Shown here: positions 513 to 60,005 of the stretch, one piece after another
Layout of the letters: every line of letters begins with the position of its first letter
How positions within the stretch are numbered: the first letter of the stretch is position 1
Assembly: GCA_964445435.1 (NCBI GenBank)
Contig: CAYUKU010000005.1
Span: 6,627 to 70,626, forward strand
Reading direction: 5' to 3'
Source of the DNA: an uncultured Gammaproteobacteria bacterium
GTDB taxonomy: Bacteria; Patescibacteriota; Microgenomatia; UBA10105; UBA927
DNA: 64,000 nucleotides
Notes under the pieces: generated by a model
Databases searched by the model: none
Told to the model about the DNA's origin: nothing
The model's input: the letters and a program-made list of their open reading frames with translations, nothing else
Made by a program: the position numbers and the translations under genes

Positions 513-559
513 ATTGTGTGGGTGACCATGGAGTCGGACCATGCGCCTCTTTCTTATCA
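513..559. repeat. 47-bp direct repeat, copy 2
   Basis: Perfect duplicate of 405-451, separated from it by a 61-bp unique spacer. Confidence 0.8.
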
Positions 560-728
560 GGAAAGCGTTCTACCGCTGAACTAGTCACCCTTCTGGGACA
601 GAAACTACGTTTCAATCCCCGCGATACTTCCTACCAAGGTGTCGCAAAGGGTTCAGTTCCGTTCGCACACCTTTGCGACAATTATATTCGATTTTATCAC
701 GATCGTGCCGCTTACGCAGTAATCGGAT

Positions 729-2619: not shown

Positions 2620-4011
2620 TTAGTTATAAATTACGACTCTCGTCCCGATATCCGCGAATTGGTAGACATATTTCGCGTCGCCCACGCCCAGCGCCACACA
2701 GCCTCCTGTGTTGGGTTGTCCGATGAAATTTGGCTTGCGATACTCCTGCCCGTTAATAAGTTTGTAGGGAGTTTCATGGATACCGAAATAGGCGTTCAAT
2801 TCCTCACTGTACTTAAATCCCATCCAGTACGGGAGCCACGACTTGTAGATGTTTGAGAATCCGAGCCCCGTTTTATTAAGAATTGTAAATTCACCCGTGG
2901 GTGTAGGATAGTCCAGACCTGTCGAGACGCGAAACGTTTTTATGAGCCTTCCGTCCTTGAAAAGGTACATTTTCTGCTGAGAGATATCGACCTCGATGTA
3001 TTTATCGGTTATCGATCCGGTTGTATTGGGCCCGGTATCGATGCTGATGGTGAGGGCGTCCACGGTATGTCCGTCATATCGGTTGGTAAGGACGGCCTGG
3101 AGATCCTCAATGACCTTCGGGGTGACGACGTTGCCCCGGATGATGAGTTTGAGCTTTTTGACTTTTTCGTTGACGGTTGTAGTCAAAGGCGCTTCTTTTA
3201 CCCCTATGGTGACGGATGTCTGGTCTTCCGACAGCTGAATATCAGTCATATCCGCAAGTTCCTTTTCGGTGAGGATAAACGCTTGTGACGTGCCTCCGGT
3301 GTCCACCAGAACGGTGAGCGGGGTGAGAAATACGTTTTTCATCCGATTACTCGTATCGGCGATCAATTTCGCTTTTTCGTTTTCGATTCTCGTGAGTTTG
3401 GGATAGAGGGGAGCGGTATTGTCCCCGATCCGTTGAGAAAGAAGCCGCATGAAGTACTCCTCATCGATCCGGTAGCGTTCTTCGTTTTCCACATAGACGA
3501 GTGACTTTTGCTGGTCATCGAAGTAGATTTCATCGGGAGCCTCGCTGAATTCAAAAACGGTCTGTTTGATATATTCACTGAATTCCTGGGTAAACGTGAG
3601 GGGAGCTTCTATCGTGGCGGGAATGAAAAACGACTTCACAAGGGTGTAGATATTGAAGGGGAGCGGCGCACGGTTCCGCGCAAATATCGCCTGCTTGATC
3701 CTTTCGTTATCCAAAACGACGCCCAGTTTGGAGTAGATGTACGTATACTCGCGGTCTCGCACCCGCACGCGGTACGGAAGAAGGGCAAACGAATCGATGA
3801 GATGGTCCACTTCGCTGACGCTTTTACCGGAGATGTCGATCGTGCCGAGCTTTGTATGAGGATACACCCACCAGGTCGCGTAAATTTGTGAGGCGGCGAG
3901 GAGATACAAAATAAATAAGGTAAACAGAAGAAGTTTTACGCGTTTACGAAGCATCCATACACGCTTAGCGTAGTAGGTTGCCCGATGAAGGTGGATCAGA
4001 TGTTTTCTCAT
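2620..4011 (-). CDS. L,D-transpeptidase (YkuD/ErfK domain) with N-terminal membrane anchor
   Basis: C-terminal HETPY...NTGGCVALG matches the YkuD catalytic His/Cys motif. An N-terminal TM segment is present. The start may instead be the internal Met at 3954. Confidence 0.75.
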   Translation of the reverse strand: MRKHLIHLHRATYYAKRVWMLRKRVKLLLFTLFILYLLAASQIYATWWVYPHTKLGTIDISGKSVSEVDHLIDSFALLPYRVRVRDREYTYIYSKLGVVLDNERIKQAIFARNRAPLPFNIYTLVKSFFIPATIEAPLTFTQEFSEYIKQTVFEFSEAPDEIYFDDQQKSLVYVENEERYRIDEEYFMRLLSQRIGDNTAPLYPKLTRIENEKAKLIADTSNRMKNVFLTPLTVLVDTGGTSQAFILTEKELADMTDIQLSEDQTSVTIGVKEAPLTTTVNEKVKKLKLIIRGNVVTPKVIEDLQAVLTNRYDGHTVDALTISIDTGPNTTGSITDKYIEVDISQQKMYLFKDGRLIKTFRVSTGLDYPTPTGEFTILNKTGLGFSNIYKSWLPYWMGFKYSEELNAYFGIHETPYKLINGQEYRKPNFIGQPNTGGCVALGVGDAKYVYQFADIGTRVVIYN

Positions 4012-4014
4012 TAT

Positions 4015-4159
4015 ACCGGGTTGTGAAATTTCGACTTTGCCTTAACGCTTTGCTCTCGAAAGTTCAGCTTCCTTTCTTTGGTATTTCCTCTTTCTCTCCA
4101 GATAGTCGCTCCACGCGCAGGCAAAGAGAGTACAAGCGTGTCGAAATTCTACTACCCGG
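4015..4159. repeat. Family A nested-palindromic intergenic element, copy A1 (145 bp)
   Basis: Terminal inverted repeats ACCGGGTTGTGAAATTTCGAC and GTCGAAATTCTACTACCCGG, plus an inner inverted pair CTTTGCCTTAACGC / GCGCAGGCAAAG. The left end abuts the L,D-transpeptidase start codon. Confidence 0.8.
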
Positions 4160-4212
4160 ATAGGTTAACGGTAGCAGATTGCCGTGACCTCGTAAACGTG
4201 CGTCTTTGATAC

Positions 4213-4821: not shown

Positions 4822-6354
4822 ATGGAATGGCCGATTCTATACAAACAAGTACTTCAGGTGAAAGATCCTACCAATCCGGTGGGTGTTGCCATCATGTGGA
4901 CCGAGCGGCAGGTTGTCGCCAATTTACTCAAAAGCGAAAATTACTGTGCCATCGGCAATCTCTACTCATCCGCCGGAATTTCCGCCATGATTCGCAATGT
5001 ATACGCCAATCCCCATATCCGTAAGATTGTGCTGTGGGGAGCGGATCTCTCCCGAAGCGGCCAGGCGCTCATGGCCCTCATGCAAAACGGCGTGGATGAA
5101 AATTTCTTTATCATCGGCGATGAGAAGAAAGGACAGATCGAGAAGGAAATCGGCCGCGAGGCAGTCGAATTATTTAGGAAATCCGTCGAGGTGGTCAATC
5201 TGCGCGGCAAGCCCGTATCCGATCTACAGAAGACAGTCGGACAGTTAAGCCGGACGAAATTCGACCCGTTCACGGATCCCAGGACGTTTCCGACAAGCCG
5301 TCCCAAGCCATTCACGTTCCCAAGCGAGCAGATTGGAATTCGCGCCCACGGACAGACGGCTGCCCAGACATGGCTGAAGATTCTTCAGAATATCATGCGT
5401 TACGGGCGCAACAAGACGACCCGCTACACCCAGGAGAATGAACTGAAAGAGCTCCTCAACGTCATGGCAGTCGTGTACAACGAAGATCCGGACAAGCCCT
5501 ACTTGCCGCACTATTTTCCGTTTTCGGAGAAAGACCTCGTGACGTATTATCCCCAAGTGTTATCAGCGAAGCAGATTCCCGGCATAGCCTATACGTATGG
5601 TCAGAGATTGCGTGATCACGATGGTGTGGATCAAATCCAAAACATCATTGACCTTATAAAAAACAGGCCGTTTAGTAAGAAAATGGCTGCCTTCACCGCG
5701 AAGGTGAAAGAAGACTGGTCTGTCGTCAACAAAGGGGACACGCCCTGTCTCACGCAGGTTCTTTGCAGCATTCAGGACGGTAAGCTCTTCATGACGACCC
5801 ACTTCCGAAGCCAGGACATGGTACACGGCTGGCCCCGAAACGTGTTCTCGCTTCGCAAACTGCAGAAGTTCATTGCCGATGAATCAGGCTATCCCATGGG
5901 TGCGTTTGTCATGATTACCCACTCTGCGCATATTTACAGTGACGATTACGAGCTTGTTGAGAATATCCTGAAAGATAACTATGACAAAGAGCTTGGATAC
6001 ACGAGCCGTCAGATGTTTGAGGAAGACATGCGCGGCAATGTCGTCATTGAAATTGAAGAAGTTGCGAAAAACGGTGTTGGCAGGCCCACCAAATATGCTG
6101 AAAAACCGCCGGTGAAAAAAGATTTCGAGATCGTGGTAAAACTCTACGCCCCCAACGGCGGCTTACTTCTCAAAGAATGGCGTGGGAAGACTGCAATGGA
6201 ACTCTATATTGAGATGGTGAATATCGGTGACTATCTCGTACTACCAAGTCACCTTATCTATATAGGCACGGAACTCCAGAGGGCTGAATACGCCATCAAA
6301 ATGGGCAAGCCCGAGAAGTTTAGCCAGGACCCCGCAGCCAACAAGGAACTATAA
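4822..6354 (+). CDS. ThyA-fold (thymidylate synthase / dNMP hydroxymethylase-like) three-domain protein
   Basis: Central region carries ThyA motifs: a TPCL nucleophile Cys in place of PCH, the RSQD...N substrate-binding segment, and HIY. About 160 aa of unknown N-terminal domain and about 140 aa of extra C-terminal domain are added. Confidence 0.65.
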   Translation: MEWPILYKQVLQVKDPTNPVGVAIMWTERQVVANLLKSENYCAIGNLYSSAGISAMIRNVYANPHIRKIVLWGADLSRSGQALMALMQNGVDENFFIIGDEKKGQIEKEIGREAVELFRKSVEVVNLRGKPVSDLQKTVGQLSRTKFDPFTDPRTFPTSRPKPFTFPSEQIGIRAHGQTAAQTWLKILQNIMRYGRNKTTRYTQENELKELLNVMAVVYNEDPDKPYLPHYFPFSEKDLVTYYPQVLSAKQIPGIAYTYGQRLRDHDGVDQIQNIIDLIKNRPFSKKMAAFTAKVKEDWSVVNKGDTPCLTQVLCSIQDGKLFMTTHFRSQDMVHGWPRNVFSLRKLQKFIADESGYPMGAFVMITHSAHIYSDDYELVENILKDNYDKELGYTSRQMFEEDMRGNVVIEIEEVAKNGVGRPTKYAEKPPVKKDFEIVVKLYAPNGGLLLKEWRGKTAMELYIEMVNIGDYLVLPSHLIYIGTELQRAEYAIKMGKPEKFSQDPAANKEL

Positions 6355-12001: not shown

Positions 12002-12087
12002 GACCCCATCAAGCTTGACACCGCCTTCATCGTTGTCTACCATACTCTTGGAGGTACCGTAAAAGAGTGCGGAAATTGGAAATTTTT

Positions 12088-12245
12088 AAGCGTGTGGCCC
12101 GCCGGCGAGGCGGGATACGAGGGAAGGGCGTATCGAAATAATCTGCGGGTGCCCTTTGGTAGTTGCTCCCTACCACAACAGCGATTCGGAAACCTCCCGG
12201 TAACGGAAGAACAACGAAGCTGACGGAGTCCGCCTCTTATCATCG
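12088..12245 (+). ncRNA. glmS ribozyme-like 5' leader (glucosamine-6-phosphate-responsive self-cleaving riboswitch), putative
   Basis: A 230-nt leader sits between a TTGACA-17-TACCAT promoter (12015-12043) and the glmS ATG. It contains ACGAGG...ATCGAA...TCTGCGGGTGCCCTT, which parallels the B. subtilis core ACGAGG..UAUCGAAUU..UCGGCGGAUGCCUCC. It also has GGTAACGGAAG (compare GUAAGGA) and a GAAGGGC/GCCCTT stem. Confidence 0.45.
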
Positions 12246-12279
12246 AAAAATCGTTTTTTATTTTCCGAAGGAGTGTTCT

Positions 12280-14061
12280 ATGTGTGGAATTTTTGGCTAC
12301 GTGGGTCCGTCACCCAAGGCGACATCATTGGTTCTTAAAGGTCTTAAGGATCTTGAATATCGGGGGTATGACAGCTGGGGCATCGCCGCAGTTCCGGATA
12401 ATTCAAACGGGCACGGCAAGATCGTCGTGAAGAAAAAGACGGGGAAAATCGGCAACGCCACGCCGGAAGGGTTTCCCGCCAGCTCATTTGCCTTCGGGCA
12501 CACGAGATGGGCGACACATGGCGGTGTCACGGATATAAACGCGCATCCCCACCTGGACTGTACGGGGACTATTGCCATCATCCATAACGGCATTCTGGAA
12601 AACTATATGGAGATCAAGGAGAAACTTCTGAAGAAAGGTCACCGATTTATCTCCCAAACGGATACCGAAGTCGCGGTTCATCTCATCGAGGAATACGCCA
12701 AAACCATGCTTTTCAGCAAGGCGGTCCAGAAGGCATTCAATGAGATGACGGGTCTCAATGCATTCATTGCCATGAATACGAAGATTAAGCAGTTCGTCGC
12801 CGTGCGAAACGGCTCGCCATTAGTCGTCGGGTTCGGGAACAAGGAAAACTACCTGGCGTCAGACGCGGCCGCCCTTTTGCCGCATACCAAGCAGGTGCAT
12901 TTTCTTGAGGACGATGAGATGGCGATTGTTACACAAAAAGGCGCCATGATATTCAACGCGCGGACGGGAGCCCATGTCGCACCGCGTAAACAGCTTCTTA
13001 CCTGGTCCCTGGCGCAGGTGGAGAAAGGCAGTTATCCGTATTTCATGCTGAAAGAGATCCATGAACAGCCGGGAATTCTGGCGGATATCGCAGCAGATGG
13101 CGCCAACAGAGCGGTAGAATTGGCGAAGGTCGTGAAGAAAAGCCATGACGTTGCCATCATCGGTTGCGGGACGGCGAGCTACGCGAGTCTTGCCGGATCT
13201 ATCTTGTTTAACAAGATTGCCAAGCGGCCGGTCACGTGGGTGATCGGAAGCGAATTTGATGACGAGGTCCAGTTTTTGGGTCCGTCGAGTCTGGTTATAG
13301 CCCTGTCTCAGTCCGGAGAGACGATGGATACGCTTGAGGCAGTGCGCAAAGCCAAGAAGAAAAAGGCGAAGATTCTTTCCATCGTCAACGTCATGGGGTC
13401 GACCCTGTACCGCGAGAGTGATTATCAGCTTCTCATAGGTGCAGGTCCGGAGAAGGGTGTTGCTTCGACGAAGGCGTTTACCGGGAAAATCGCCCACACG
13501 CTTCTTCTGGCTTACGCGTCAGTCGGGAAGGTCGGGGATGGGCAAAAAATGCTGACCAAAGCAGCGCGTGTGGCCAAGGAAATACTGTCGGAGAAATCCG
13601 TTTCCCGGATTAAGACGCTTGCCAAGCGCATCGCCAAAAACGAACACGCCTATGTCATCGGCCGCGGCATGAGTTATCCAACCGCCCTCGAGACGGCGCT
13701 TAAGATCAAGGAGATCTCCTACATTCACGCGGAAGGGTTTGCCGCGGGGGAGCTCAAGCACGGAGTGATTGCGCTTATCGAAGAAGGAACGCCGTGCATC
13801 GCGTTTCTCCCCAACGACGAGACGTACGCAGCGAACCTGGCTGGCGCCATGGAGATGAAGGCGCGCGGCGGGTACATCATCGGGGTATCGCACAAACCCC
13901 ACGAGATATTTGATTACTACATTCCGGTGAAGGATGTGGGACCGGCAACGCTCATCCCCAACGTCATGGTTGCCCAGCTTTTGGCCTATTACCTGACGAT
14001 TGAGCGCGGGTTTGATCCCGACATGCCGCGCAATCTGGCCAAAAGCGTGACGGTAAAATAG
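12280..14061 (+). CDS. glmS: glutamine--fructose-6-phosphate aminotransferase
   Basis: Starts MCGIFGYVG (N-terminal Cys nucleophile) and ends with SIS domains. RBS AAGGAG is present. The ORF-track start at 12163 is too far upstream. Confidence 0.95.
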   Translation: MCGIFGYVGPSPKATSLVLKGLKDLEYRGYDSWGIAAVPDNSNGHGKIVVKKKTGKIGNATPEGFPASSFAFGHTRWATHGGVTDINAHPHLDCTGTIAIIHNGILENYMEIKEKLLKKGHRFISQTDTEVAVHLIEEYAKTMLFSKAVQKAFNEMTGLNAFIAMNTKIKQFVAVRNGSPLVVGFGNKENYLASDAAALLPHTKQVHFLEDDEMAIVTQKGAMIFNARTGAHVAPRKQLLTWSLAQVEKGSYPYFMLKEIHEQPGILADIAADGANRAVELAKVVKKSHDVAIIGCGTASYASLAGSILFNKIAKRPVTWVIGSEFDDEVQFLGPSSLVIALSQSGETMDTLEAVRKAKKKKAKILSIVNVMGSTLYRESDYQLLIGAGPEKGVASTKAFTGKIAHTLLLAYASVGKVGDGQKMLTKAARVAKEILSEKSVSRIKTLAKRIAKNEHAYVIGRGMSYPTALETALKIKEISYIHAEGFAAGELKHGVIALIEEGTPCIAFLPNDETYAANLAGAMEMKARGGYIIGVSHKPHEIFDYYIPVKDVGPATLIPNVMVAQLLAYYLTIERGFDPDMPRNLAKSVTVK

Positions 14062-14153
14062 TGTTAAGTGCAACCGCCGTGCAGACGGGAATTTCAAAGA
14101 CACGCTCACTGATGGTTGTCCGCACGTCGTTTGCTTTTGGGTGACCCGCTTTT

Positions 14154-14317
14154 AGCAGCGTAGCAAACAATTTTTTGCGACAACTGAGCGTTCGCATAAT
14201 GTCATGGAGTTTAATCGTGATATGCGAACGCTCACTTAGCGAACGACGGGAAGTACTCATCGATCAGTGATTATCATCAGGTGAGCAGGTCGCTGAAAAT
14301 TCGTTTGCGAAGCTGCT
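14154..14317. repeat. Family B nested-palindromic element, copy B1 (164 bp)
   Basis: Terminal inverted repeats AGCAGCGTAGCAAACAATTTT / AAAATTCGTTTGCGAAGCTGCT and inner stem GAGCGTTCGC / GCGAACGCTC. Lies between the convergent glmS and HD genes. Confidence 0.8.
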
Positions 14318-14328
14318 TCTGGAGGGCG

Positions 14329-14979
14329 TTAGTATTTAATCACAAATTCCTTGAGGAGTTTTTTCTCCGTCTTTCCGCCGATAATTGCCTTTACTTCGAA
14401 GTATTGCTCCACCCCTGAATGGGAGAGTTTTTCTTTCAGAAGCTCGTCGACCTGGAAGATGCCCGCCGAGTTGCTCATCGTGATGTAGATTTCAATCGGG
14501 CGGTCTTTGCCTTCTTTTATTTCCACGCCTTCGACGGCATACGCGGAGAGCGAATGGATATTTACTTTTCCTGCCTCATAGGGAATGCGGGAGCGGCCGC
14601 TACTCATATCAAGTGCGTCGGCGATCCGTACGATGCCGGCCTCTTTGGTAAGCGGTCTTCCGTCAGATCGGTGACTGATGATGGCGTGAAGCGTTTCAGA
14701 GATGACAATCGTTCGTTCCGAAATGGGCATAAACGAGAGCGTTTCCCGAAGAAGCGAATTTGCCAGAAACAGGCTATATGTTTCGTGGTCAATGCGGTGG
14801 ATGGACATCCCAAGATCATGGAGAATGCTTGCAAGTACGATGACCACTTCGGCATGCTGTTGGGTGAGTTTGTAGTCTTTCACGATGGACATCTGGATGT
14901 TGTTTTTCTCAAGAATCCGCGCAAGTCGAAGTGCGATATTTGCCACAATCTGGAAATGGACGGGTCCGTGATCGCTCAT
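14329..14979 (-). CDS. HD-domain phosphohydrolase (possibly a YfbR-like 5'-deoxynucleotidase)
   Basis: H...HD...H...D motifs: DHGPVHF, ILHDLGM, TLHAIISH, VRIADALD. The ORF-track N-terminus at 15489 overlaps the dNK gene, so the start was trimmed to the Met at 14979. Confidence 0.55.
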   Translation of the reverse strand: MSDHGPVHFQIVANIALRLARILEKNNIQMSIVKDYKLTQQHAEVVIVLASILHDLGMSIHRIDHETYSLFLANSLLRETLSFMPISERTIVISETLHAIISHRSDGRPLTKEAGIVRIADALDMSSGRSRIPYEAGKVNIHSLSAYAVEGVEIKEGKDRPIEIYITMSNSAGIFQVDELLKEKLSHSGVEQYFEVKAIIGGKTEKKLLKEFVIKY

Positions 14980-15850: not shown

Positions 15851-16552
15851 ATGCAGGATAAGCTGATGTCGGACATACGCGTAATCATTTGGGATTTCGA
15901 CGGGACGTTCTATCCGCAGAATCCCGCGGTAACTGCAGCGATGGAGGAAGGACAGTACCAAACAATCATGCGCCACAAGGGCTGGACGCATGAGCGGGCG
16001 AAAGAAGAATTCTGGAAGATATACCCTTCGCAAACGACAAGCGGAAATACCGCGGTGGGACGCATCTGCGGAATCACCACTGCTCAGGCGGGCGTGGAAA
16101 ACGAACAGGGATTTGATAGGCTTGCGTTTATCCCAAAGGATCACCATCTTCCCGAATTGTTTGAGAAGTTAAAAGGCTTCCGGCACTTCATTCTGGGAAA
16201 TGGCGTTCAAGCGAATTTGTTGAAAACAACCAAAGGGTTAGGCATTGATCACGTGTTTGAAGAGATCGTCACGAGTGAAACGGTAGGAGCCAACAAGCCG
16301 GATCCGGCGGGATTCCGGTATATCCTGAAAAAGACAGGGTTTGCGCCCCGACAGCATGTGATGGTTGGAGACCGCGAGGTGGTCGACCTTGCTCCCGCCA
16401 AAAAGCTGGGCATGCGCACCTGTCTCGTGACGTGGGGAGAGGGGTTTTCCGAACTGCCAACAACCGGTGAGAGCGTGGATATCACCATCCCAACGGTATA
16501 CGACCTGCCAGATCGGCTCCATGAAATTGCATCTGCAAGTCGCTTAGCATAG
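15851..16552 (+). CDS. HAD-family hydrolase (nucleotidase-like)
   Basis: IIWDFDGTF (motif I) and VGDREVVDLAPA (motif IV). The start could instead be the ATG at 15866. Confidence 0.7.
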   Translation: MQDKLMSDIRVIIWDFDGTFYPQNPAVTAAMEEGQYQTIMRHKGWTHERAKEEFWKIYPSQTTSGNTAVGRICGITTAQAGVENEQGFDRLAFIPKDHHLPELFEKLKGFRHFILGNGVQANLLKTTKGLGIDHVFEEIVTSETVGANKPDPAGFRYILKKTGFAPRQHVMVGDREVVDLAPAKKLGMRTCLVTWGEGFSELPTTGESVDITIPTVYDLPDRLHEIASASRLA

Positions 16553-16561
16553 TATATTTTT

Positions 16562-24702: not shown

Positions 24703-25158
24703 ATGGACATTTCCCTCGATTTACTCAAGAAATTGCGTGCCGAGACCTCCGCCGGAGTTTCTGATTGCCGTCAGGCTCTGGAAGATGCCGCTGGAGACTA
24801 CGAGAAAGCCAAGAAGCTGGTCATGGAGCGAAGCACGGCGAAGGCGGAGAAAAAAGCTGACCGCCAGACAGGGTCGGGACTCGTCGAGTCCTACGTTCAC
24901 GGCGGCCGTGTGGGTGTCGTTGTGGAACTTCGGTGCGAGACGGATTTCGTTGCCCGCACGGACGAGTTTAAACATCTTGCCCATGAAGTCGCGCTTCAGG
25001 TTGCCGCAATGAATCCGAAGGACGCCAAGGAACTCCTGGAAAGCGCCTATATCCGTGACCCCAAACTCACGATCGGAGCGCTCGTTAAGCAGACGATCGG
25101 CAAATTAGGAGAGAACATCACCCTCGGCCGTTTTTCCCGCCTGGCTCTAGGCGAATAA
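24703..25158 (+). CDS. tsf: elongation factor Ts (short form)
   Basis: UBA-like N-terminus LLKKLRAETSAGVSDCRQAL and an EF-Ts core. Confidence 0.85.
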   Translation: MDISLDLLKKLRAETSAGVSDCRQALEDAAGDYEKAKKLVMERSTAKAEKKADRQTGSGLVESYVHGGRVGVVVELRCETDFVARTDEFKHLAHEVALQVAAMNPKDAKELLESAYIRDPKLTIGALVKQTIGKLGENITLGRFSRLALGE

Positions 25159-25170
25159 CCTCGTTGCGTA

Positions 25171-25334
25171 AGCAGCGCAGCAAACAATTTTCAAAGACAA
25201 CTGAGCGTTTGCGCTCGCAAAGTGAGGATTTCTTGAGTATGCAAACGCTCATTTAGCGAGCAATGGGTACGATTTCACGGTCAAAAATGTCATACGGTGA
25301 GCGGGTCTTTGGAAAATTTGTTTGCAAAGCTGCT
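25171..25334. repeat. Family B element, copy B2 (164 bp)
   Basis: Terminal inverted repeats AGCAGCGCAGCAAACAATTTT / AAAATTTGTTTGCAAAGCTGCT and inner stem GAGCGTTTGC / GCAAACGCTC. Lies between tsf and the frr promoter. Confidence 0.8.
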
Positions 25335-25339
25335 TTTGC

Positions 25340-25368
25340 TTGACCAATTCTGATTCATAGCGTAATAT
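25340..25368 (+). promoter_or_regulatory. frr promoter TTGACC-17-TAATAT; predicted start site about 4 nt before the ATG at 25379
   Basis: Hexamers with an exact 17-nt spacer. The first in-frame ATG at 25367 lies inside the -10 box. Confidence 0.5.
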
Positions 25369-25378
25369 GTTCCCACTG

Positions 25379-25942
25379 ATGGTAGACTCGATTCTCCAAA
25401 CCGCGCGTGACCACATGAAGAAAGCCCTCGAGGTCACAAGCGCAGACGTAGCATCTATCCGGTCCGGGCGCGCGACGCCCGCTCTCGTCGAAAATATTGT
25501 TATCACCGCCTATGGCGGGTCACAGAAGCTGCGTGTCCTCGAGATGGCTACGATCACGACAATGGACGCCAAGACGATTGTGATTGCTCCGTATGATCCG
25601 TCCACGCTCGCGGATATAGAGAAGGGCATTACCGCGGCCAATACGGGTCTCACGCCTGTGGTGGACGGCGAGATAATCAGGATTTCTATTCCGCCCTTGT
25701 CTCAAGAGCGCCGAATGGAATACATCAAACTCGCTAAAGCGAAACTCGAGTCCGGTCGCGTTATGGTCCGGCAGATTCGTCACGAAGCCATGAAAGATCT
25801 CAAAACCGAGGCGGATGAGAAAACGATATCAGGAGACCAGAAGAAAATCGGTGAGAAGATGGTACAGGAATTAACGGATGAAATGATTGCAGAAATAGAC
25901 GCCATCGGCGCGAAAAAAGAAGCAGAACTCCTCCAGATCTAG
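25379..25942 (+). CDS. frr: ribosome recycling factor
   Basis: MVDSILQTARDHMKKALE aligns with the Frr N-terminus. Confidence 0.9.
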   Translation: MVDSILQTARDHMKKALEVTSADVASIRSGRATPALVENIVITAYGGSQKLRVLEMATITTMDAKTIVIAPYDPSTLADIEKGITAANTGLTPVVDGEIIRISIPPLSQERRMEYIKLAKAKLESGRVMVRQIRHEAMKDLKTEADEKTISGDQKKIGEKMVQELTDEMIAEIDAIGAKKEAELLQI

Positions 25943-28175: not shown

Positions 28176-28511
28176 ATGGCAACATATGATGATTTTTTGA
28201 AACTTGATATTCGGGTCGGGAAGATAATCACAGTTGACGATTTTCCAGAGGCGCGAAAGCCCGCCTACAAAATCACGATCGACTTCGGATCAGAGATTGG
28301 CACGAAGCGAAGTAGTGTCCAGATAGTCAAGCACTATAAGAAGGAGGATCTGCTTGGGAAAAAAGTCCTGGGTGTGGTCAATTTCCCTCCACGGCAAATC
28401 GGTCCTTTTCTATCAGAAGTACTTACGTTGGGTGTTCCCGATACTGATCATGAGTGTATACTGATAGTGCCGGACATGGACGATGCTGTTGTGGGCGGTA
28501 AATTATATTAA
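28176..28511 (+). CDS. csaA: tRNA-binding protein (CsaA / EMAP-like OB fold)
   Basis: LDIRVGKIITVDDFPEARKPAYKITIDFG. Confidence 0.8.
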   Translation: MATYDDFLKLDIRVGKIITVDDFPEARKPAYKITIDFGSEIGTKRSSVQIVKHYKKEDLLGKKVLGVVNFPPRQIGPFLSEVLTLGVPDTDHECILIVPDMDDAVVGGKLY

Positions 28512-38438: not shown

Positions 38439-39662
38439 ATGGCGACAGTTTCACAGCGACTTTTAGAGGTTCCCGCATCTCCCATCCGGAAACTTGTTCC
38501 CCTTGCCACTGCTGCCAAAAAAGAAGGGGTGAAAGTCTATCACCTGAATATCGGGGATCCGGATATAGAAACCCCACCGCCCATGATGAAGGTTTTGTCG
38601 GACTGGAAAGCTAACCCGATCGGCTATAGCCAGTCTCAGGGTGAGCCTGTATTCCTTGAGGCTCTCAAGACGTATTACCACAAACTCGGTGCGACATTTC
38701 TGGATATTCCCAATATCCAGGTAACGAGCGGGGGATCGGAAGGAATTTCGTATGCGATGTTTGCCACTTGCGAGTCAGGCGACGAGGTCATTGTCTTTGA
38801 ACCATTCTATGCCAACTACAACGGATACGCAGTGGTTAACGGCGTGAAGCTGGTTCCCATAAAAACATCGATTGAACAGGGGTTTCACCTGCCGTCTGCC
38901 GCCGAAATCGAGAAGCACATAACTGCCAAAACGAAGGCAATTCTTATCTGTACTCCGAACAACCCCACCGGTACCGTGTACACCAAAGATGAAATGGATA
39001 TGCTTGTCAGCCTGGTGAAGAAACATGGATTGTTTCTCTTGTCTGATGAGGTGTATCGGGAGTATGCCTATGACGGCAAGAAACAGACGTCACTTTTGGG
39101 ATACATGCAGGAGATTCCTTCCCAGGCGATCGTACTTGATAGTATGTCTAAGCGATACAACCTCTGCGGCGTTCGGCTGGGTGTCCTTCTGTCTCTCAAC
39201 GCCGACATCATGGCAGGCGTCCTTCGCATTTCTCAGGGCAGGCTTTCCTGCGGCATTATCGATCAGTCCATCGCGGCGAAATTGACGGATGTTTCTGAAG
39301 ACTGGATGAGAAAAACGCATGATGAGTGGGAGAAGCGGCGAGATGTCCTGTATGAAGGGCTAAAGAACATTCCGGGAGTAACAATTCCGAGGCCTGAGGG
39401 TGCTTTTTACACCATTGTCGGGCTTCCGGTTTCCGACTCGGAAGATTTCGCGCGTTGGCTTCTGACCGATTTTCGCGATCCTTCGGCAAGCTCAGGACAA
39501 CCTGAGACGGTAATGGTCGCGCCCGCCGCTGGCTTCTATGCGACGAAGGGCCTGGGGAAAAACGAAGTCCGGATCGCCTACGTTATAAACACCCGCGACC
39601 TGGCCAGATGCGTCGAGCTTCTCCAAAAGGCCCTCATAGCGTATAATAAAAAGAGTAAATAA
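38439..39662 (+). CDS. class I/II PLP-dependent aminotransferase
   Basis: SKRYNLCGVRLG (PLP lysine) and overall AAT-like pattern. Confidence 0.85.
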   Translation: MATVSQRLLEVPASPIRKLVPLATAAKKEGVKVYHLNIGDPDIETPPPMMKVLSDWKANPIGYSQSQGEPVFLEALKTYYHKLGATFLDIPNIQVTSGGSEGISYAMFATCESGDEVIVFEPFYANYNGYAVVNGVKLVPIKTSIEQGFHLPSAAEIEKHITAKTKAILICTPNNPTGTVYTKDEMDMLVSLVKKHGLFLLSDEVYREYAYDGKKQTSLLGYMQEIPSQAIVLDSMSKRYNLCGVRLGVLLSLNADIMAGVLRISQGRLSCGIIDQSIAAKLTDVSEDWMRKTHDEWEKRRDVLYEGLKNIPGVTIPRPEGAFYTIVGLPVSDSEDFARWLLTDFRDPSASSGQPETVMVAPAAGFYATKGLGKNEVRIAYVINTRDLARCVELLQKALIAYNKKSK

Positions 39663-39670
39663 CCCCTAGA

Positions 39671-39775
39671 AGGCAGCGCGAGAAACCATTTTGAAGACAA
39701 CTGCGCGTTTGCTCGGATTATTGAAGTTTCGCTGAATATGCAAACGCGCATTTAGTGAACAATGGGGCTGCGCCT
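39671..39775. repeat. Family B element, copy B3 (truncated, about 105 bp)
   Basis: GGCAGCGCGAGAAACCATTTTGAAGACAACTGCGCGTTTGC...GCAAACGCGCATTTAGTGAACAATGGGG. The inner stem has compensatory GC-to-CG changes relative to B1 and B2. Confidence 0.7.
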
Positions 39776-39901
39776 CATGATATATTCCAGCATGAGTGAA
39801 CGTGTCTTCATAAATGCGTTTCACGCGATGCCACGTGGTTATGAATAGAATTCTTTGGCTTCGCACAGGAGATGTTGCACGCGATGCATTTGATTTAAAT
39901 T

Positions 39902-43179: not shown

Positions 43180-43641
43180 ATGCCCAACGGTGTTCCCAGT
43201 CAGATTATAAGCGAATTAGGCGAACTAGGGAAAAAGGTCGGCGGCGAAGTGGCCAAGATTCCCAAGGACATCGCCGGCAAGGCCCTTGAAAGCATGGGTA
43301 CGGCAAGCGGTAAAGCAGGAACCACTACCCCCAAAGCGCCTCCAAGTGAGGCGAAAAGCGACTCCATGTGGGATAGAATCGGTCTCGAGAAAGATAAGAA
43401 GATCAAGCGCGCGATTGCAAGGAAGGCGCTTGAGGATCTTATAAATAAGCAGCCCCAACGAAGAGAGCCCTCCATCTGGGAGCGGCTCCAGATGGAGCAG
43501 GAACAGAAGAAACAAGCTCAGCAACAGGCCGGTGCAGGCTCACCGCTTCCCATGCCCGCAAGCAAGCGTCCGCGCGGAGACCTCTACGGCGCGAAGGCGA
43601 AAAAGACCGCCACCGAAAACAAAAACGTCCGGCAAGATTGA
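43180..43641 (+). CDS. hypothetical Lys/Gln-rich protein
   Basis: 153-aa ORF tightly coupled to the upstream gene. Confidence 0.4.
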   Translation: MPNGVPSQIISELGELGKKVGGEVAKIPKDIAGKALESMGTASGKAGTTTPKAPPSEAKSDSMWDRIGLEKDKKIKRAIARKALEDLINKQPQRREPSIWERLQMEQEQKKQAQQQAGAGSPLPMPASKRPRGDLYGAKAKKTATENKNVRQD

Positions 43642-43685
43642 GATGAAAGGCATTAGACTTCGGGTGACGCGCGAAATTCCAAACA

Positions 43686-43781
43686 AGCGGCGAAGTGACT
43701 CTATCAAAGACAACTGAGCGTTAACCCGACCTGGTAGTGAGTTTCCTGAATATGTGAATATTCATTGAGCGAACGATGGGA
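43686..43781. repeat. Family B element, copy B4 (degenerate, about 96 bp)
   Basis: AGCGGCGAAGTGACTCTATCAAAGACAACTGAGCGTT...ATTGAGCGAACGATGGG. The right end lies 8 nt before the ATG of the next gene. Confidence 0.6.
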
Positions 43782-43789
43782 ATGTCCGT

Positions 43790-45403
43790 ATGATACACAA
43801 AAAGCCATCCGGTAAGCGCGCCTTTGAAATTCGTCGACGAGCCGATTGGAAAGTCGTTATTCCATTTTCGAAGCGTCTTCTTCTTGCATCGCTTCTCCTT
43901 CCCCTCTGGATTTTCCTTCGCTCCGCCTACCGAGACAGGATCGGCGCGTTCGGGTGCTTCGATGACTGCTTCAACATTATGGGCGGCCATTTCCTCCTTC
44001 GGGGGAAGCGTTTGTTTTCCGAAATATTTTTCAACCACATGCCCGCAATGGCGCATCTAAGCGCCTGGATTCAGGCTGCTACGAAGCCCGATTCCATCTA
44101 TATGCTTATCTACCAGCACCGGATGTTTATGATCTATTTTTCCCTCATTGCTGACGTACTTTTGGTATTGCGGTTTGGCCTTCCCGCGCTTGCATTTGCG
44201 TTTCTCTATGAGTCGACGAAAGGATTTATCTTTGGTGAGCGGTTTCTTGCGGAAGGCCTTATCGTCTATCCGCTTGTTTATGCGCTGGGCGTTTCATGGG
44301 AAGCCTTGCGCAAGGGGACGGTGCGGACGGTGGAAGTATGGATTATGACTCTGCTCACTCTCGGCGTGGTATTTTCCCGCGAGCCGTATATACCGCTTGC
44401 GCTTTTCTTGTGGGGAACGGTTCTTTGGAAAGCCAAACGGGTACCGGGCATTGTCGCTATCGCGGCTTTTGTAGCGGCTGCAGGCGTGCTCGTCGTTTCA
44501 TACGGTCCCAGAGATTTCTTCTTTAATGTTGTGACTGTGAGTAGGCGCGTTATCGATGTCGAAAGCCAATTGACGTCTTCGGGAGCTGGCGGGCTGGCGG
44601 CAGTGGTCCTGTATCCGATTCTTCTTTTCTTCAAAGGCGAGTGGAATCTCTTCCATCAGGTCGAGGCGATTATGAGCGCTTTTTTCCTTCTTGGGGTAGT
44701 ATGGTTTGCCAAACGCGGGGAGTGGGGCAAGGCGATATGGTGGGTGGGCGTTCTGACGCTTGCCAACATCCGCACCATTGCGCCCGGATCCCTTTATTAC
44801 GGTACGTTTCATCATCTTCCATGGTATGCACTTATCGTTGCGGGATCAGGGGTGATGATGCGCCAGGTATGGCCGAAACTCTTTGTTCTCGCCTTCGCCG
44901 CGACGTCGCTGTATGCCATTGTGTCTCCGGCATCATACCTTCACGAGAAGGTTGATCGGCAGACGGAATTTACGACAAACTACGGACATTACTATGTTGT
45001 CGGTGAAGTCGTGAGAAGACTATCGGATGAGGGCAGCACGCTTTTTCTTGACGGTCAGGATGATCTTATTTACTGGCAGGCGAAACGGTATTCATCATAT
45101 CCGTACAGCTGGTATACCTCACTGATGCCGTATTTTCCCCGGTATACGGATGCCAGAAGCAGCATGTTTAAGAATAATCCCCCGGAGTATTACTACGGCA
45201 GCTGCAGTGAAAACAAAGCGCCTGAGGTCGTCCTTCCCACGCCGGAAGCATATGTGCGGCTCTCTCAAAACGGCAAGCCGTCCTGCCTCTGGATTCGGCG
45301 TGACACTTTGACCTCAATACCCGCCGACGCGTGGCAGTCCGTGTCTGAATTCAGATACACACCCCCCCCGACGGTCCTACCGGAATCGGCGTTGAAAAGT
45401 TAA
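43790..45403 (+). CDS. polytopic integral membrane protein (possibly GT-C-type glycosyltransferase-like)
   Basis: 537 aa with at least 10 predicted TM helices and an extracytoplasmic C-terminal domain. Confidence 0.5.
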   Translation: MIHKKPSGKRAFEIRRRADWKVVIPFSKRLLLASLLLPLWIFLRSAYRDRIGAFGCFDDCFNIMGGHFLLRGKRLFSEIFFNHMPAMAHLSAWIQAATKPDSIYMLIYQHRMFMIYFSLIADVLLVLRFGLPALAFAFLYESTKGFIFGERFLAEGLIVYPLVYALGVSWEALRKGTVRTVEVWIMTLLTLGVVFSREPYIPLALFLWGTVLWKAKRVPGIVAIAAFVAAAGVLVVSYGPRDFFFNVVTVSRRVIDVESQLTSSGAGGLAAVVLYPILLFFKGEWNLFHQVEAIMSAFFLLGVVWFAKRGEWGKAIWWVGVLTLANIRTIAPGSLYYGTFHHLPWYALIVAGSGVMMRQVWPKLFVLAFAATSLYAIVSPASYLHEKVDRQTEFTTNYGHYYVVGEVVRRLSDEGSTLFLDGQDDLIYWQAKRYSSYPYSWYTSLMPYFPRYTDARSSMFKNNPPEYYYGSCSENKAPEVVLPTPEAYVRLSQNGKPSCLWIRRDTLTSIPADAWQSVSEFRYTPPPTVLPESALKS

Positions 45404-47693: not shown

Positions 47694-48060
47694 TGGCAAG
47701 CGCAGTCACGGAATGACTGGAGATAAGAAACGTCTTGGAGTCGATATTGACTTTCACCATTTGTCCCGGGGTGACGGAAGCCATATTGAAGGCAGCGGGA
47801 ACAGTCACGGTCCACCTCCCCAAATCTTGGGGGCTTCCTTCGCGGTTTTCATCCGAGAGAAACACGCGATCAAGCGTGAGTGTTCCGTCTGCTTCGTTGA
47901 CGGCGCTGACGGTGCCATTGAGTTCAAGCGTTTTGACGACGGCCGCGCGGGCCCGGACGTCCGTTGATGAAGAGGAGGATGTTCGCGAGAGAAGTGAGAC
48001 CATCGCGATAGCAAGGATGATGAGAAGGACGCTTCCCAGAAGAAGGACGTTTTTGCTCAT
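47677..48060 (-). CDS. membrane-anchored secreted protein, function unknown
   Basis: Starts MSKNVLLLGSVLLIILAIAMVSL (signal anchor). The ORF-track extension to 48174 runs into repeat A2. Confidence 0.5.
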   Translation of the reverse strand: MSKNVLLLGSVLLIILAIAMVSLLSRTSSSSSTDVRARAAVVKTLELNGTVSAVNEADGTLTLDRVFLSDENREGSPQDLGRWTVTVPAAFNMASVTPGQMVKVNIDSKTFLISSHSVTALAITPVK

Positions 48061-48206
48061 ACCGGGTTGTGAAATTTTGACCTTTGCCTTAACGCGTTTG
48101 TTCTGAACATGCAGCTTCCTTTCCTGTCGAATGAACTTTTTTCCTGACCAGAGAGTCTCTCCACGCGCAGGCAAAGAACAAAGCGCGTGTCGAAATTCTA
48201 CTTAGC
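48061..48206. repeat. Family A element, copy A2 (about 146 bp)
   Basis: ACCGGGTTGTGAAATTTTGAC...CTTTGCCTTAACGC...GCGCAGGCAAAG...GTGTCGAAATTCTACT. About 80% identical to A1. The left end abuts the start codon of 47677-48060. Confidence 0.8.
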
Positions 48207-48254
48207 ATATCTACATTGTTCCATTCCCATAACACCATGTCAAGCTGTTTCAGG

Positions 48255-58540: not shown

Positions 58541-59213
58541 AGAGTCGTGAGGCTTCCATCACGTACCGCAGAAATACCGTAGCAGACAGCATTTCCAACC
58601 CTTCTTCTATGCCAACCATCAGAACGTAAATCGGGTGGCCGTAGGTTGCTCCACCAACGATTTCAAATACGAGTATGGCGCCGTACATGAGAAGCCCCGT
58701 CCAGAGAAGCTGTTGCCGTTGCCGATGTGTTTCCCGTCGGGCAATCGCCGCGAACGACATGAAGACGAAGATGATAAAGACAAGTAACGGAAATATCCAG
58801 GAGAAATAAACAAAAGATCCGAGGAATGATTGTGCGGAAACGAGCCCCTTGAGCGTGGTGCTTACATATTCGTGAATTTCGAAGTATTCGTCGAGTGACA
58901 GCATGAGGAAAAAGGAGGCCATCCCGGCGTATGAAAGAATGGTACCGATCCTTTTTTGGGCGCCGAGGGTAAGAAAACCGATGACTGCAGCCAGAAGATA
59001 TACACCGGAGGTGAACCACGCGGCCAGAGTGACTTTCTCATCCATGTAAAAGATGCTGGTATCCATGCCCAGGATTCGGTAGGGATGAAACAGGAAATGA
59101 AGAAGCGTAATGCCGAGGCTAACGGCGAAGAGTCCGCGGAATGCTCGGGTCGGAATATCCATCTGTAATGTAGTATACACTGATTGGAACACCTCCTGTA
59201 TAATGAAGTTCAT
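58521..59213 (-). CDS. integral membrane protein, function unknown
   Basis: 230 aa with 6 predicted TM helices. Its start codon abuts repeat A3. Confidence 0.5.
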   Translation of the reverse strand: MNFIIQEVFQSVYTTLQMDIPTRAFRGLFAVSLGITLLHFLFHPYRILGMDTSIFYMDEKVTLAAWFTSGVYLLAAVIGFLTLGAQKRIGTILSYAGMASFFLMLSLDEYFEIHEYVSTTLKGLVSAQSFLGSFVYFSWIFPLLVFIIFVFMSFAAIARRETHRQRQQLLWTGLLMYGAILVFEIVGGATYGHPIYVLMVGIEEGLEMLSATVFLRYVMEASRLFNASGR

Positions 59214-59357
59214 GCCGGGTTGTAGAATTTCGACACGGCTTTCTCTTGTTTGCCCGTATATCTACGTGACTCGCCATATGACAATCGGTATCTATAACGA
59301 AAGGAGTCTGGAATTTCGAAAGCCGTAAAGGCAAACGTCGAAATTTCACTACCCGGC
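59214..59357. repeat. Family A element, copy A3 (144 bp), flanked on both sides by divergent start codons
   Basis: cat|GCCGGGTTGTAGAATTTCGAC...GGAATTTCGAAAG...GTCGAAATTTCACTACCCGGC|atg. The terminal inverted repeats are perfect apart from 2 mismatches. A central TTTCGAAA palindrome is present. Confidence 0.85.
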
Positions 59358-60005
59358 ATGTTTCGTATAGAAAAGACAGACCTTCTCGTCTCCGTCTATA
59401 TCTTCTGCATTCTGGTCAGCGAACTTATGGGGGGCAAGACATTTCCTGTTTTGACGTGGCCCGTCAGGCTCAATGCATCGGTAGCTATTTTCGTTCTTCC
59501 CCTCGTCTATTCCATAAACGATATCGTAATTGAGGTTCTGGGAATTGAGCGTGCCAGAAGTATCGTCAGAAGCGGACTTATAACTGTTGCACTCGTATTG
59601 GGCTTTTCACTTCTTGCCACAAGTTTGCCGCCTTCGGGCAGATTTGCGGCAACCGAATCTGCGTACGATACCATTTTCGGATTGTCAGCGCGGATTGCAG
59701 CGGCCTCTCTCACTGCATTTTTGCTTGCTGAGTTTACCGATTTACTCGTGTTCCAGAAAATCCGTGCCCGACTGGGGAAGAAATCCCTCTGGCTCAGAAG
59801 TAACGCGTCCAATATCGTTTCACACTTCCTGGATACGGTTATCTTTATAACGCTTGCGTTTTACGGGGTCAACCGTCCGTTTGCCGATAACATTTCGTTT
59901 CTCTGGAGTCTCATTTTGCCGTACTGGCTTCTTAAGTGCAGCATGTCTGTTGTTACCACTCCGCTTGTGTATGCGGGAGTCAGGTGGCTGAAAGGAAAAC
60001 AATGA
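59358..60005 (+). CDS. VUT-family transporter (YhhQ-like queuosine-precursor transporter, DUF165)
   Basis: Aligns along its length with E. coli YhhQ, for example SHFLDTVIFITLAFYG compared with SDTLAFFFIAFW. Confidence 0.7.
   Translation: MFRIEKTDLLVSVYIFCILVSELMGGKTFPVLTWPVRLNASVAIFVLPLVYSINDIVIEVLGIERARSIVRSGLITVALVLGFSLLATSLPPSGRFAATESAYDTIFGLSARIAAASLTAFLLAEFTDLLVFQKIRARLGKKSLWLRSNASNIVSHFLDTVIFITLAFYGVNRPFADNISFLWSLILPYWLLKCSMSVVTTPLVYAGVRWLKGKQ

Follow-up and report, generated by a model that had tools for sequence, protein, structure and literature searches.

Location and extent of the family B copies

The window (the whole stretch of 64,000 nucleotides analysed here) has a GC content of about 0.51 and a positive GC skew throughout; the majority of its genes, an ordinary housekeeping set, are on the plus strand. 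Dispersed among these genes is a repeat, family B, which is a genuine, clearly bounded feature with a unit length of 161–164 bp. Four copies lie on the plus strand, each 3' of a plus-strand gene, and the first-pass annotation had placed them correctly: B1 (14154–14317) follows glmS, B2 (25171–25334) follows tsf, B3 (39672–39832) follows an aminotransferase gene and B4 (about 43686–43846) follows the open reading frame (ORF) 43180–43641. Two of the four had been regarded as truncated; alignment shows that the 3' halves of B3 and B4 are present and more diverged, and that all four copies are full length, B1, B2 and B3 being intact and B4 decayed. A fifth, partial copy, B0 (about 14068–14115), corresponds to the 3' third of the element and lies on the minus strand, inverted and paired with B1. 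An orientation is thus shared by four of the five copies, and the earlier description of all copies as plus-stranded holds for B1 to B4.

The copies fill the short gaps that separate a stop codon from the promoter or gene that follows. B0 starts 6 nt past the stop codon of glmS (plus strand, 14059–14061), and B1 sits between the convergent 3' ends of glmS and an HD-domain gene (minus strand), ending 11 nt from the stop codon of the latter (14329–14331); it faces this convergent gene and does not lie 5' of a next gene. B2 starts 12 nt past the tsf stop codon (25158) and was inserted directly upstream of the −35 box of a promoter-like site for frr (TTGACC-17-TAATAT, 25340–25368, plus strand). 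This site is ancestral, being conserved in relatives. B3 starts 9 nt past the aminotransferase stop codon (39660–39662), with an HAD gene (39902) 69 nt downstream. B4 supplies the predicted start codon and the first 19 codons of ORF 43790–45403 (bases 43790–43846), so the statement that each element is exactly intergenic fails for this copy. No conserved sigma-70-like promoter or intrinsic terminator was found in or around the copies, and the 64-kb window contains no transposase domain or gene.

The surroundings of B2 have two further features. The −10 box of frr (TAATAT or TAAGAT) is only about 6–11 nt before the ATG, both in the window (25340–25381) and in the related loci L002, L003, L009, L014, L021 and L029; this short distance suggests that the frr mRNA is leaderless or nearly so across the clade. 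The frr start in the window is at 25379 (187 amino acids), not at 25367. Upstream, EF-Ts (24703–25158) has just 151 amino acids, and its similarity to the Pfam EF_TS model is confined to the first third of the latter. As the proteins of relatives also have 151–152 amino acids, the short form characterises the clade and did not arise through truncation by B2.

Sequence conservation and database searches

The core shared by the copies, already recognised in the first-pass annotation, consists of blocks conserved far above chance. The 3' motif CATTTAGCGAACAATGGG has four matches in the window at up to three mismatches, against 0.09 expected, and the 5' motif GACAACTG.GCGTT is present in all four copies. 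The terminal sequence of the family is AAGCAGCG.AGCAAACAATTTT. The terminal inverted repeats of about 30 nt, likewise borne out, are imperfect; in B2, AAGCAGCGCAGCAAACAATTTTCAAAGAC matches its partner at 26 of 29 bases, with two indels. Pairwise identity among the copies is 52–68%, and the GC content of the elements is 0.45–0.47, compared with about 0.51 for the window.

A covariance model, R1, was built from the four copies with 37 base pairs. With filters off, it recovers only B1–B4 in the 64-kb window, at 143–171 bits (170.8 for B1, 170.5 for B2, 155.7 for B3 and 142.8 for B4); the best unrelated match, a copy of another repeat family, scores 12.8 bits. Of the modelled pairs, 34–36 are kept in B1–B3 (35 Watson-Crick and one G-U in B1, 34 Watson-Crick in B3) and 21 in B4. 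B0 is accepted as a copy because positions 14092–14109 (minus strand) match the consensus 3' block GTGAGCGNGTCTTTGAAA without gaps at 17 of 17 specified bases, with no mismatch; 0.12 matches to this block are expected by chance at up to three mismatches. Its gapped local-alignment score is not significant, being no better than the genomic background.

Six-frame translation of the copies gives stops or non-conserved frames and no conserved ORF. A chimera of the six-frame translations of the four copies resembles none of 5.8 billion proteins, and no record was found for a 66-amino-acid ORF spanning B3. A small conserved ORF starting from the AUGGG motif was considered and rejected: it would have 26 amino acids in B2 and 28 in B3, lacks the AUG in B1 and is frame-shifted in B4.

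In Rfam, family B has no match at gathering or E-value thresholds. The best match by E-value on B1, to a microRNA model, reaches 19 bits against a threshold of 82 bits, and the whole window matches only two tRNAs and the glmS ribozyme at gathering score. A scan for the core pattern gave no match in 185,579 species genomes and none in JGI metagenomes; with a relaxed pattern there were two metagenome and two IMG/VR matches, which the covariance model identified as chance matches in every case. Family B was not found in about 570 kb of related CPR DNA. Short Logan contigs from run SRR10095373 match the window itself without differences.

The motif GGGTGACSCGC has exactly two occurrences in the window, as GGGTGACCCGC 4 nt upstream of B1 (14139–14149, plus strand) and, in the sole other exact occurrence, as GGGTGACGCGC 13 nt upstream of B4 (43662–43672). 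Its GACSCGC part could pair with GC.SG.C in the 3' domain of each copy itself, with one compensating change. The motif may be debris from older copies.

Predicted fold and covariation

The predicted consensus fold is a three-way junction formed by P1, P2 and a 3' domain. P1 is a long closing stem, identical with the so-called terminal inverted repeats, and has three segments: AGCAGC/GCUGCU, GCAAAC/GUUUGC and UUUUCAAAGAC/GUCUUUGGAAAA, which in B2 are P1a (25171–25176/25329–25334), P1b (25180–25185/25320–25325) and P1c (25189–25198/25305–25316). P2 is an 11-bp stem, UGAGCGUUUGC/GCAAACGCUCA (25202–25212/25241–25251 in B2), with about 28 variable nucleotides in its loop. In the 3' domain, the conserved CAYUUAGYGARCRAYGGG is followed by about 30 variable nucleotides and by GGUGAGC. 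Here a tentative helix, P3 (25256–25261/25296–25302 in B2), may pair AGCGAAC with GGUGAGC around tandem G.A pairs. In B3 the two strands are AGUGAAC/AGUGAAC, and pairs around the G.A/A.G core are kept; P3 is held as a hypothesis because a local hairpin competes with it in single-sequence folds. An alternative fold, in which the identical GCAAAC/GUUUGC hexamers of P1b and P2 pair with each other, was rejected, as the substitutions in B1 and B3 favour the nested fold.

The calculated folding energies are −67 kcal/mol for B1 (z = −6.2), −59.5 kcal/mol for B2 (z = −4.8) and −67.5 kcal/mol for B3 (z = −5.3), where the outer stem is compensated on its own (GGCA.CGCG/CGCG.TGCC). B4 is degraded (z = −1.35), with 21 of the 37 pairs left and five G-U against four A-C mismatches. 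For B1–B3, the plus-strand RNA folds better than the minus strand by 6–11 kcal/mol, the minus-strand folds having −54 to −60 kcal/mol. Counts of G-U versus A-C in the intact copies give no signal as to the functional strand.

Divergence is uneven: the loops are about 33% identical, the P2 stems 88%, and the junction ACT, at the centre of the invariant GACAACTG, 100%. The inner stem covaries exactly as first noted, with the variants GAGCGTTCGC/GCGAACGCTC, GAGCGTTTGC/GCAAACGCTC and GCGCGTTTGC/GCAAACGCGC. Compensatory double changes that keep the pairing affect 10 of the 37 pairs, a number reached by none of 500 shuffles, and pairing falls from 91% to 27–43% when the partners are slid; the control is a weak one, as it draws on just five sequences, which also gave the structure. 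The earlier proposal that selection acts on the structure rather than on the sequence therefore stands as far as structure-preserving change is concerned. Such change does not by itself prove an RNA function, because the same pattern is to be expected of a mobile element that depends on the fold in its source copies. The case is a caution on method, as clean compensatory changes in a repeat family alone do not demonstrate a functional RNA.

Empty sites in related genomes

Ribosomal protein S2 of the window is 72–77% identical to that of metagenome-assembled genomes (MAGs) labelled Candidatus Gottesmanbacteria, Microgenomates or Patescibacteria, and the ribosome recycling factor is 74% identical to that of Gottesmanbacteria RBG_13_45_10. 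The closest relative found is GCA_964553825.1 (loci L021 and L088), with 91% amino acid identity in tsf. In the closest relatives the gene order is conserved and short spacers without the element are present at three of the four sites: those of B2, B3 and B4 in GCA_964553825.1, of B3 and B4 also in L089, and of B2 also in other relatives.

At the B2 site, the tsf–frr spacer is 50 bp long in L021, compared with 220 bp in the window. The promoter TTGACC...TAATAT...CCACTG-ATG is shared by the L021 spacer, and the 170 bp by which the window exceeds this spacer separate the tsf stop codon from the −35 box. Among the other relatives listed, most have a spacer of 0–142 bp and a few a longer one; the element is in none of them. 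At the B3 site, the spacer between the aminotransferase and HAD genes is 70 bp in L088 and 239 bp in the window. The insertion sizes at these two sites, 163–170 bp, equal the length of the element. At the B4 site, the homologues of g43180 and g43790 share 17 nt in L088; gaps of 67 nt in L089 and 148 nt in the window separate the two genes. The check with a covariance model had been proposed earlier: R1 retrieves the four copies in the window and, with default filters, no copy in 33 related CPR loci (527 kb), nor, with filters off, in L088 or L089. These comparisons indicate that the family B copies are lineage-specific insertions of about 165–207 bp. Candidate direct repeats are TTGC for B2, TAGAA for B3 and GATTG together with a longer imperfect duplication for B4, with none for B1; they lie at inconsistent offsets from the element ends and could be due to chance.

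At the B4 site, about 207 nt have been inserted, and a formerly overlapping gene pair is now separated. The L088 homologue of ORF 43790 begins at an ATG within the 3' end of the upstream gene; in the window this ancestral ATG reads ACG (43626–43628), and some 27 nt that used to encode the N-terminus are left upstream of B4 (43642–43668). The first 19 residues of ORF 43790 (MIHKKPSGKRAFEIRRRAD) are now encoded by the 3' arm of B4. A co-option of B4 could account for this arrangement: the element would have provided a new start codon and an N-terminal tail, and its stems would have been allowed, or selected, to melt. Loss of the stems would be favoured because the start codon sits inside a structure of −60 kcal/mol. 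A stretch similar to 43642–43668 recurs after B4 (43844–43873), as though some 30 nt of the target had been imperfectly duplicated.

The glmS region and the B0/B1 pair

The glmS gene (12078–14061, with its ribozyme at 12078–12232) is oriented opposite to its counterparts in all 11 relatives compared (L006, L009–L011, L013–L016, L018, L019 and L024), with the adjacent HD-domain gene and g15851 as the reference. In these relatives a short HD-N protein gene precedes glmS on the same strand. The location of the B0/B1 inverted pair at the edge of this lineage-specific inversion is suggestive but anecdotal.

A different long-armed palindrome, of 123 nt, is located just after the HD gene in L002 (124–246, minus strand), from the Gottesmanbacteria MAG MFD01476.bin.2.135. 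Its arm GAGCAGCGGAGCAAAATAATTTTG resembles the 5' end of family B. It was rejected as a family B copy, with an R1 score of only 6.5 bits and a match level of four edits that is also reached by chance, and may be a distant relative or a coincidence.

The sister strain and a second repeat family

Sister strain L082 (ERR15113708) is 97.8% identical to the window and carries the orthologous B2 (164 bits). In the overlap of about 11 kb, which holds this one shared copy, there is no presence/absence polymorphism of family B between the two strains. The B2 orthologues have four differences in their 164 positions; the divergence of third codon positions in the vicinity is about 4.7%, and four differences are too few for a test of constraint. 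One of the four is a 1-nt deletion inside stem P1b.

A second family of nested palindromes, family A, has units of about 155 nt with the ends CCGGGTTGTGAAATTTCGAC and GTCGAAATTCTACTACCCGG. Its copies in the window, at 4005–4165 (plus strand), 48051–48210 (plus strand) and 59205–59365 (minus strand), precede dcd, an MFS transporter gene and a Vut_1/YhhQ-type transporter gene. Each copy abuts a start codon, with CAT or ATG within 1–3 nt of the CCGGG end. L082 has an extra copy (12760–12896 in L082) directly after an ATG; the corresponding site in the window (28176–28178) is without a copy, and this is a strain-level insertion polymorphism. The spacer upstream of the MFS gene has just 15 bp in L088, so the family A copy there is also an insertion. 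From the strain polymorphism in family A it follows that elements of this general kind are mobile at present in this species. Synteny between L082 and the window breaks exactly at window position 16561: upstream of tmk, L082 has an unrelated gene for 526 amino acids (1–1183) in place of the 233-amino-acid gene of the window (15851–16561).

Comparison with known repeat families

Family B resembles miniature inverted-repeat elements (MITEs) such as the Correia elements (CREE) of Neisseria and QMITE of Coxiella, which are also shorter than 500 bp, have long terminal inverted repeats and contain no ORF. Like family B, MITEs have dispersed intergenic copies that differ in presence or absence between relatives, form very stable stem-loops when transcribed, can be co-opted for expression signals and occur in clustered or nested copies (PMC10969869). 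However, family B has no sequence similarity to any described MITE family, no partner IS was identified in the 64-kb window and there is no clear target-site duplication, while Correia elements make a TA duplication. The interior is not a simple palindrome but a conserved three-way junction with invariant single-stranded motifs, and the copies are old and diverged (52–68% identity) rather than near-identical.

The enterobacterial ERIC/IRU repeats are, like family B, imperfect palindromes found in intergenic regions that are transcribed, often immediately 3' of genes. With a length of about 127 bp, these repeats are co-transcribed and can change mRNA stability, in Yersinia involving RNase E (PMC10969869). 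They belong to another phylum and differ in sequence; mobility has never been demonstrated for ERIC, while insertion of family B is shown by the empty sites. REP, BIME and REPIN sequences are extragenic palindromes mobilised by RAYT proteins; they follow stop codons, sometimes as inverted pairs, keep their fold by compensatory change and in E. coli have a role in stabilising mRNA 3' ends. REP units have 20–40 nt and a conserved GTAG/CTAC, whereas family B has 164 nt with 30-nt inverted ends. An assignment to REP/REPIN was rejected on this length and on the occurrence of GTAG in B1 only (GCAG in B2, GCGAG in B3); the 64-kb window has no RAYT (Y1 transposase) gene. Rickettsia palindromic elements (RPE) are palindromic repeats of about 100–150 bp in a reduced genome, which can contribute coding sequence inside ORFs. 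B4 has a similar trait, contributing the N-terminus of ORF 43790; RPE typically insert in frame inside genes, whereas family B is otherwise extragenic and is unrelated in sequence.

The nature of family B

Prokaryotic MITEs measure about 50–800 bp, typically less than 500 bp, and have terminal inverted repeats of at least 10–15 bp, no transposase ORF and multiple dispersed copies; their target-site duplications of 2–10 bp may fade in old copies (PMC10969869, PMC11602168). Family B has units of 161–164 bp and inverted ends of about 30 nt, kept with compensating changes in B3, which surround the conserved hairpin P2 and a conserved 3' segment; it encodes no protein. Four full copies and one fragment are dispersed over 64 kb, the sites of B2, B3 and B4 are occupied in the window and empty in relatives, and the composition is slightly AT-rich, with a stable transcript structure. 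The inverted fragment B0 and the decayed B4 are typical of mobile-element turnover. Among the roles proposed in the first-pass annotation, these observations favour the REP/MITE-like element. Family B is a previously unseen family of an ordinary mobile-element kind, not a new RNA class, and probably represents a new, lineage-restricted group of MITE-like, non-autonomous mobile elements in a Gottesmanbacteria-like (CPR/Patescibacteria) genome.

A plausible course of events would be as follows. A transposase encoded elsewhere would recognise the inverted ends and move the copies, and the surviving copies would be those that landed in the sole permissive spots of a very compact genome. With such spots located within transcription units, read-through would carry the element into mRNA. 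For B2 and B4 this read-through is obligatory, since B2 lies between tsf and a promoter, without a terminator, and B4 inside a former gene overlap. In such mRNA the element would fold into a very stable three-way junction, with the long P1, the hairpin P2 and the 3' domain. The structure-preserving substitutions would reflect selection on the fold in active source copies, acting via transposition or via tolerance of the transcribed RNA, and any benefit to the host, for example protection of the 3' end of the upstream mRNA, would be secondary, if it exists. A 3'-UTR structure, passive or selected, is possible; a 3'-UTR role had been suggested earlier.

The near-perfect stems of B1–B3 and the fully conserved single-stranded motifs would be explained equally well by host selection on each copy. 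The copies might have spread and then each been kept because the upstream cistron has gained, at its 3' end, a useful RNA with a three-way junction. Such an RNA might stop exonucleases that work from 3' to 5', act as a processing site for RNase III or RNase E and so uncouple adjacent cistrons, or be recognised by a protein via the conserved single-stranded motifs and the helix with tandem G.A pairs. We consider such a host-selected, cis-acting module possible, if doubtful. It would fit the co-orientation of the four full copies with the upstream gene, together with the unavoidable read-through of B2 and B4, the pairs kept by the tentative P3 in B3 and the unrelated hairpins that fill the same spacers in other lineages (one with a 13-bp stem in L089). 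The uneven divergence and the better fold of the plus strand also speak for it, but both are equally expected if the diverged, active source copies need the fold, and the 10 pairs with compensated double changes come from the weak test described above. No gene here needs the element, because the closest relatives lack it at the same sites; the fold is lost in B4, the B2 orthologues show no detectable constraint and have a deletion inside P1b, and the G-U and A-C counts favour neither strand. The decay of B4 is compatible with a MITE and with an RNA role alike. In a stronger form of the argument, which we regard as unlikely, family B would be a mobile, modular structured RNA now used by the reduced CPR genome as a 3'-UTR or intercistronic domain, with the intact copies kept in situ by selection. 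In that case a protein or RNase would be drawn to GACAACUG, CAYUUAGYGARCRAYGGG and the helix with tandem G.A pairs, and mRNA 3' ends would be set or neighbouring cistrons uncoupled as a result.

Terminator, stand-alone small RNA and purely DNA-level roles are less likely than these. The nested palindrome could act as double-stranded or cruciform DNA, as a protein-binding site (nucleoid, recombination) or a recombination hotspot. The elements are nearly as palindromic on both strands, the B0/B1 inverted pair lies at the glmS inversion boundary and compensatory change in palindromes can arise through DNA-level processes; but conservation extends to long single-stranded segments that are not palindromic (GACAACTG, CAYTTAGYGARCRAYGGG) and to an asymmetric three-way architecture, no DNA-binding motif was identified and a single inversion junction is anecdotal, which makes an explanation of this kind improbable. 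A family of independently transcribed, trans-acting small RNAs, another of the earlier proposals, would agree with the length of about 160 nt, the stable structure and the conserved unpaired motifs as possible seed regions. We find it very improbable, given that a conserved sigma-70-like promoter is absent upstream and inside, as is an intrinsic terminator, that B2 and B3 begin so close behind a stop codon (12 and 9 nt) and B4 inside a former gene overlap, and that the element has no Rfam match and is absent from relatives. The proposed role as an intrinsic terminator was rejected: no copy has a U-tract at its 3' end, and expression of ORF 43790 needs read-through of B4.

The reading of family B as MITE-like mobile elements bears on a group of organisms, the CPR/Patescibacteria, whose genomes of about 1 Mb are tightly packed and poorly studied for mobile DNA; a full-text literature search found no description of MITE-type repeats in them. 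Here, at least two families of nested palindromes of 150–165 bp fill tiny gaps between stop codons and promoters. As family A is polymorphic, B4 has rebuilt a gene start and B0/B1 are at an inversion boundary, these repeats are useful for following genome dynamics at the level of strains. In these organisms they probably also supply 3'-UTR structure and new gene starts.

Other insertions in the same spacers

Gaps between stop codons and promoters appear to be recurrent landing sites, and the spacers that hold family B in the window carry unrelated insertions elsewhere. Tandem AACTCAGA-like repeats are present in L004 (11430–11571), a repeat-rich block of 300 bp occupies one of these spacers in L022 (7764–8063), and the hairpin of L089, which is unrelated to family B, follows the aminotransferase gene (5262–5416). 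In the window itself, a direct repeat of 50 nt (405–454 and 513–562), with 98% identity between its two units 108 nt apart, adjoins and overlaps the tRNA-Ile gene (518–590, minus strand).
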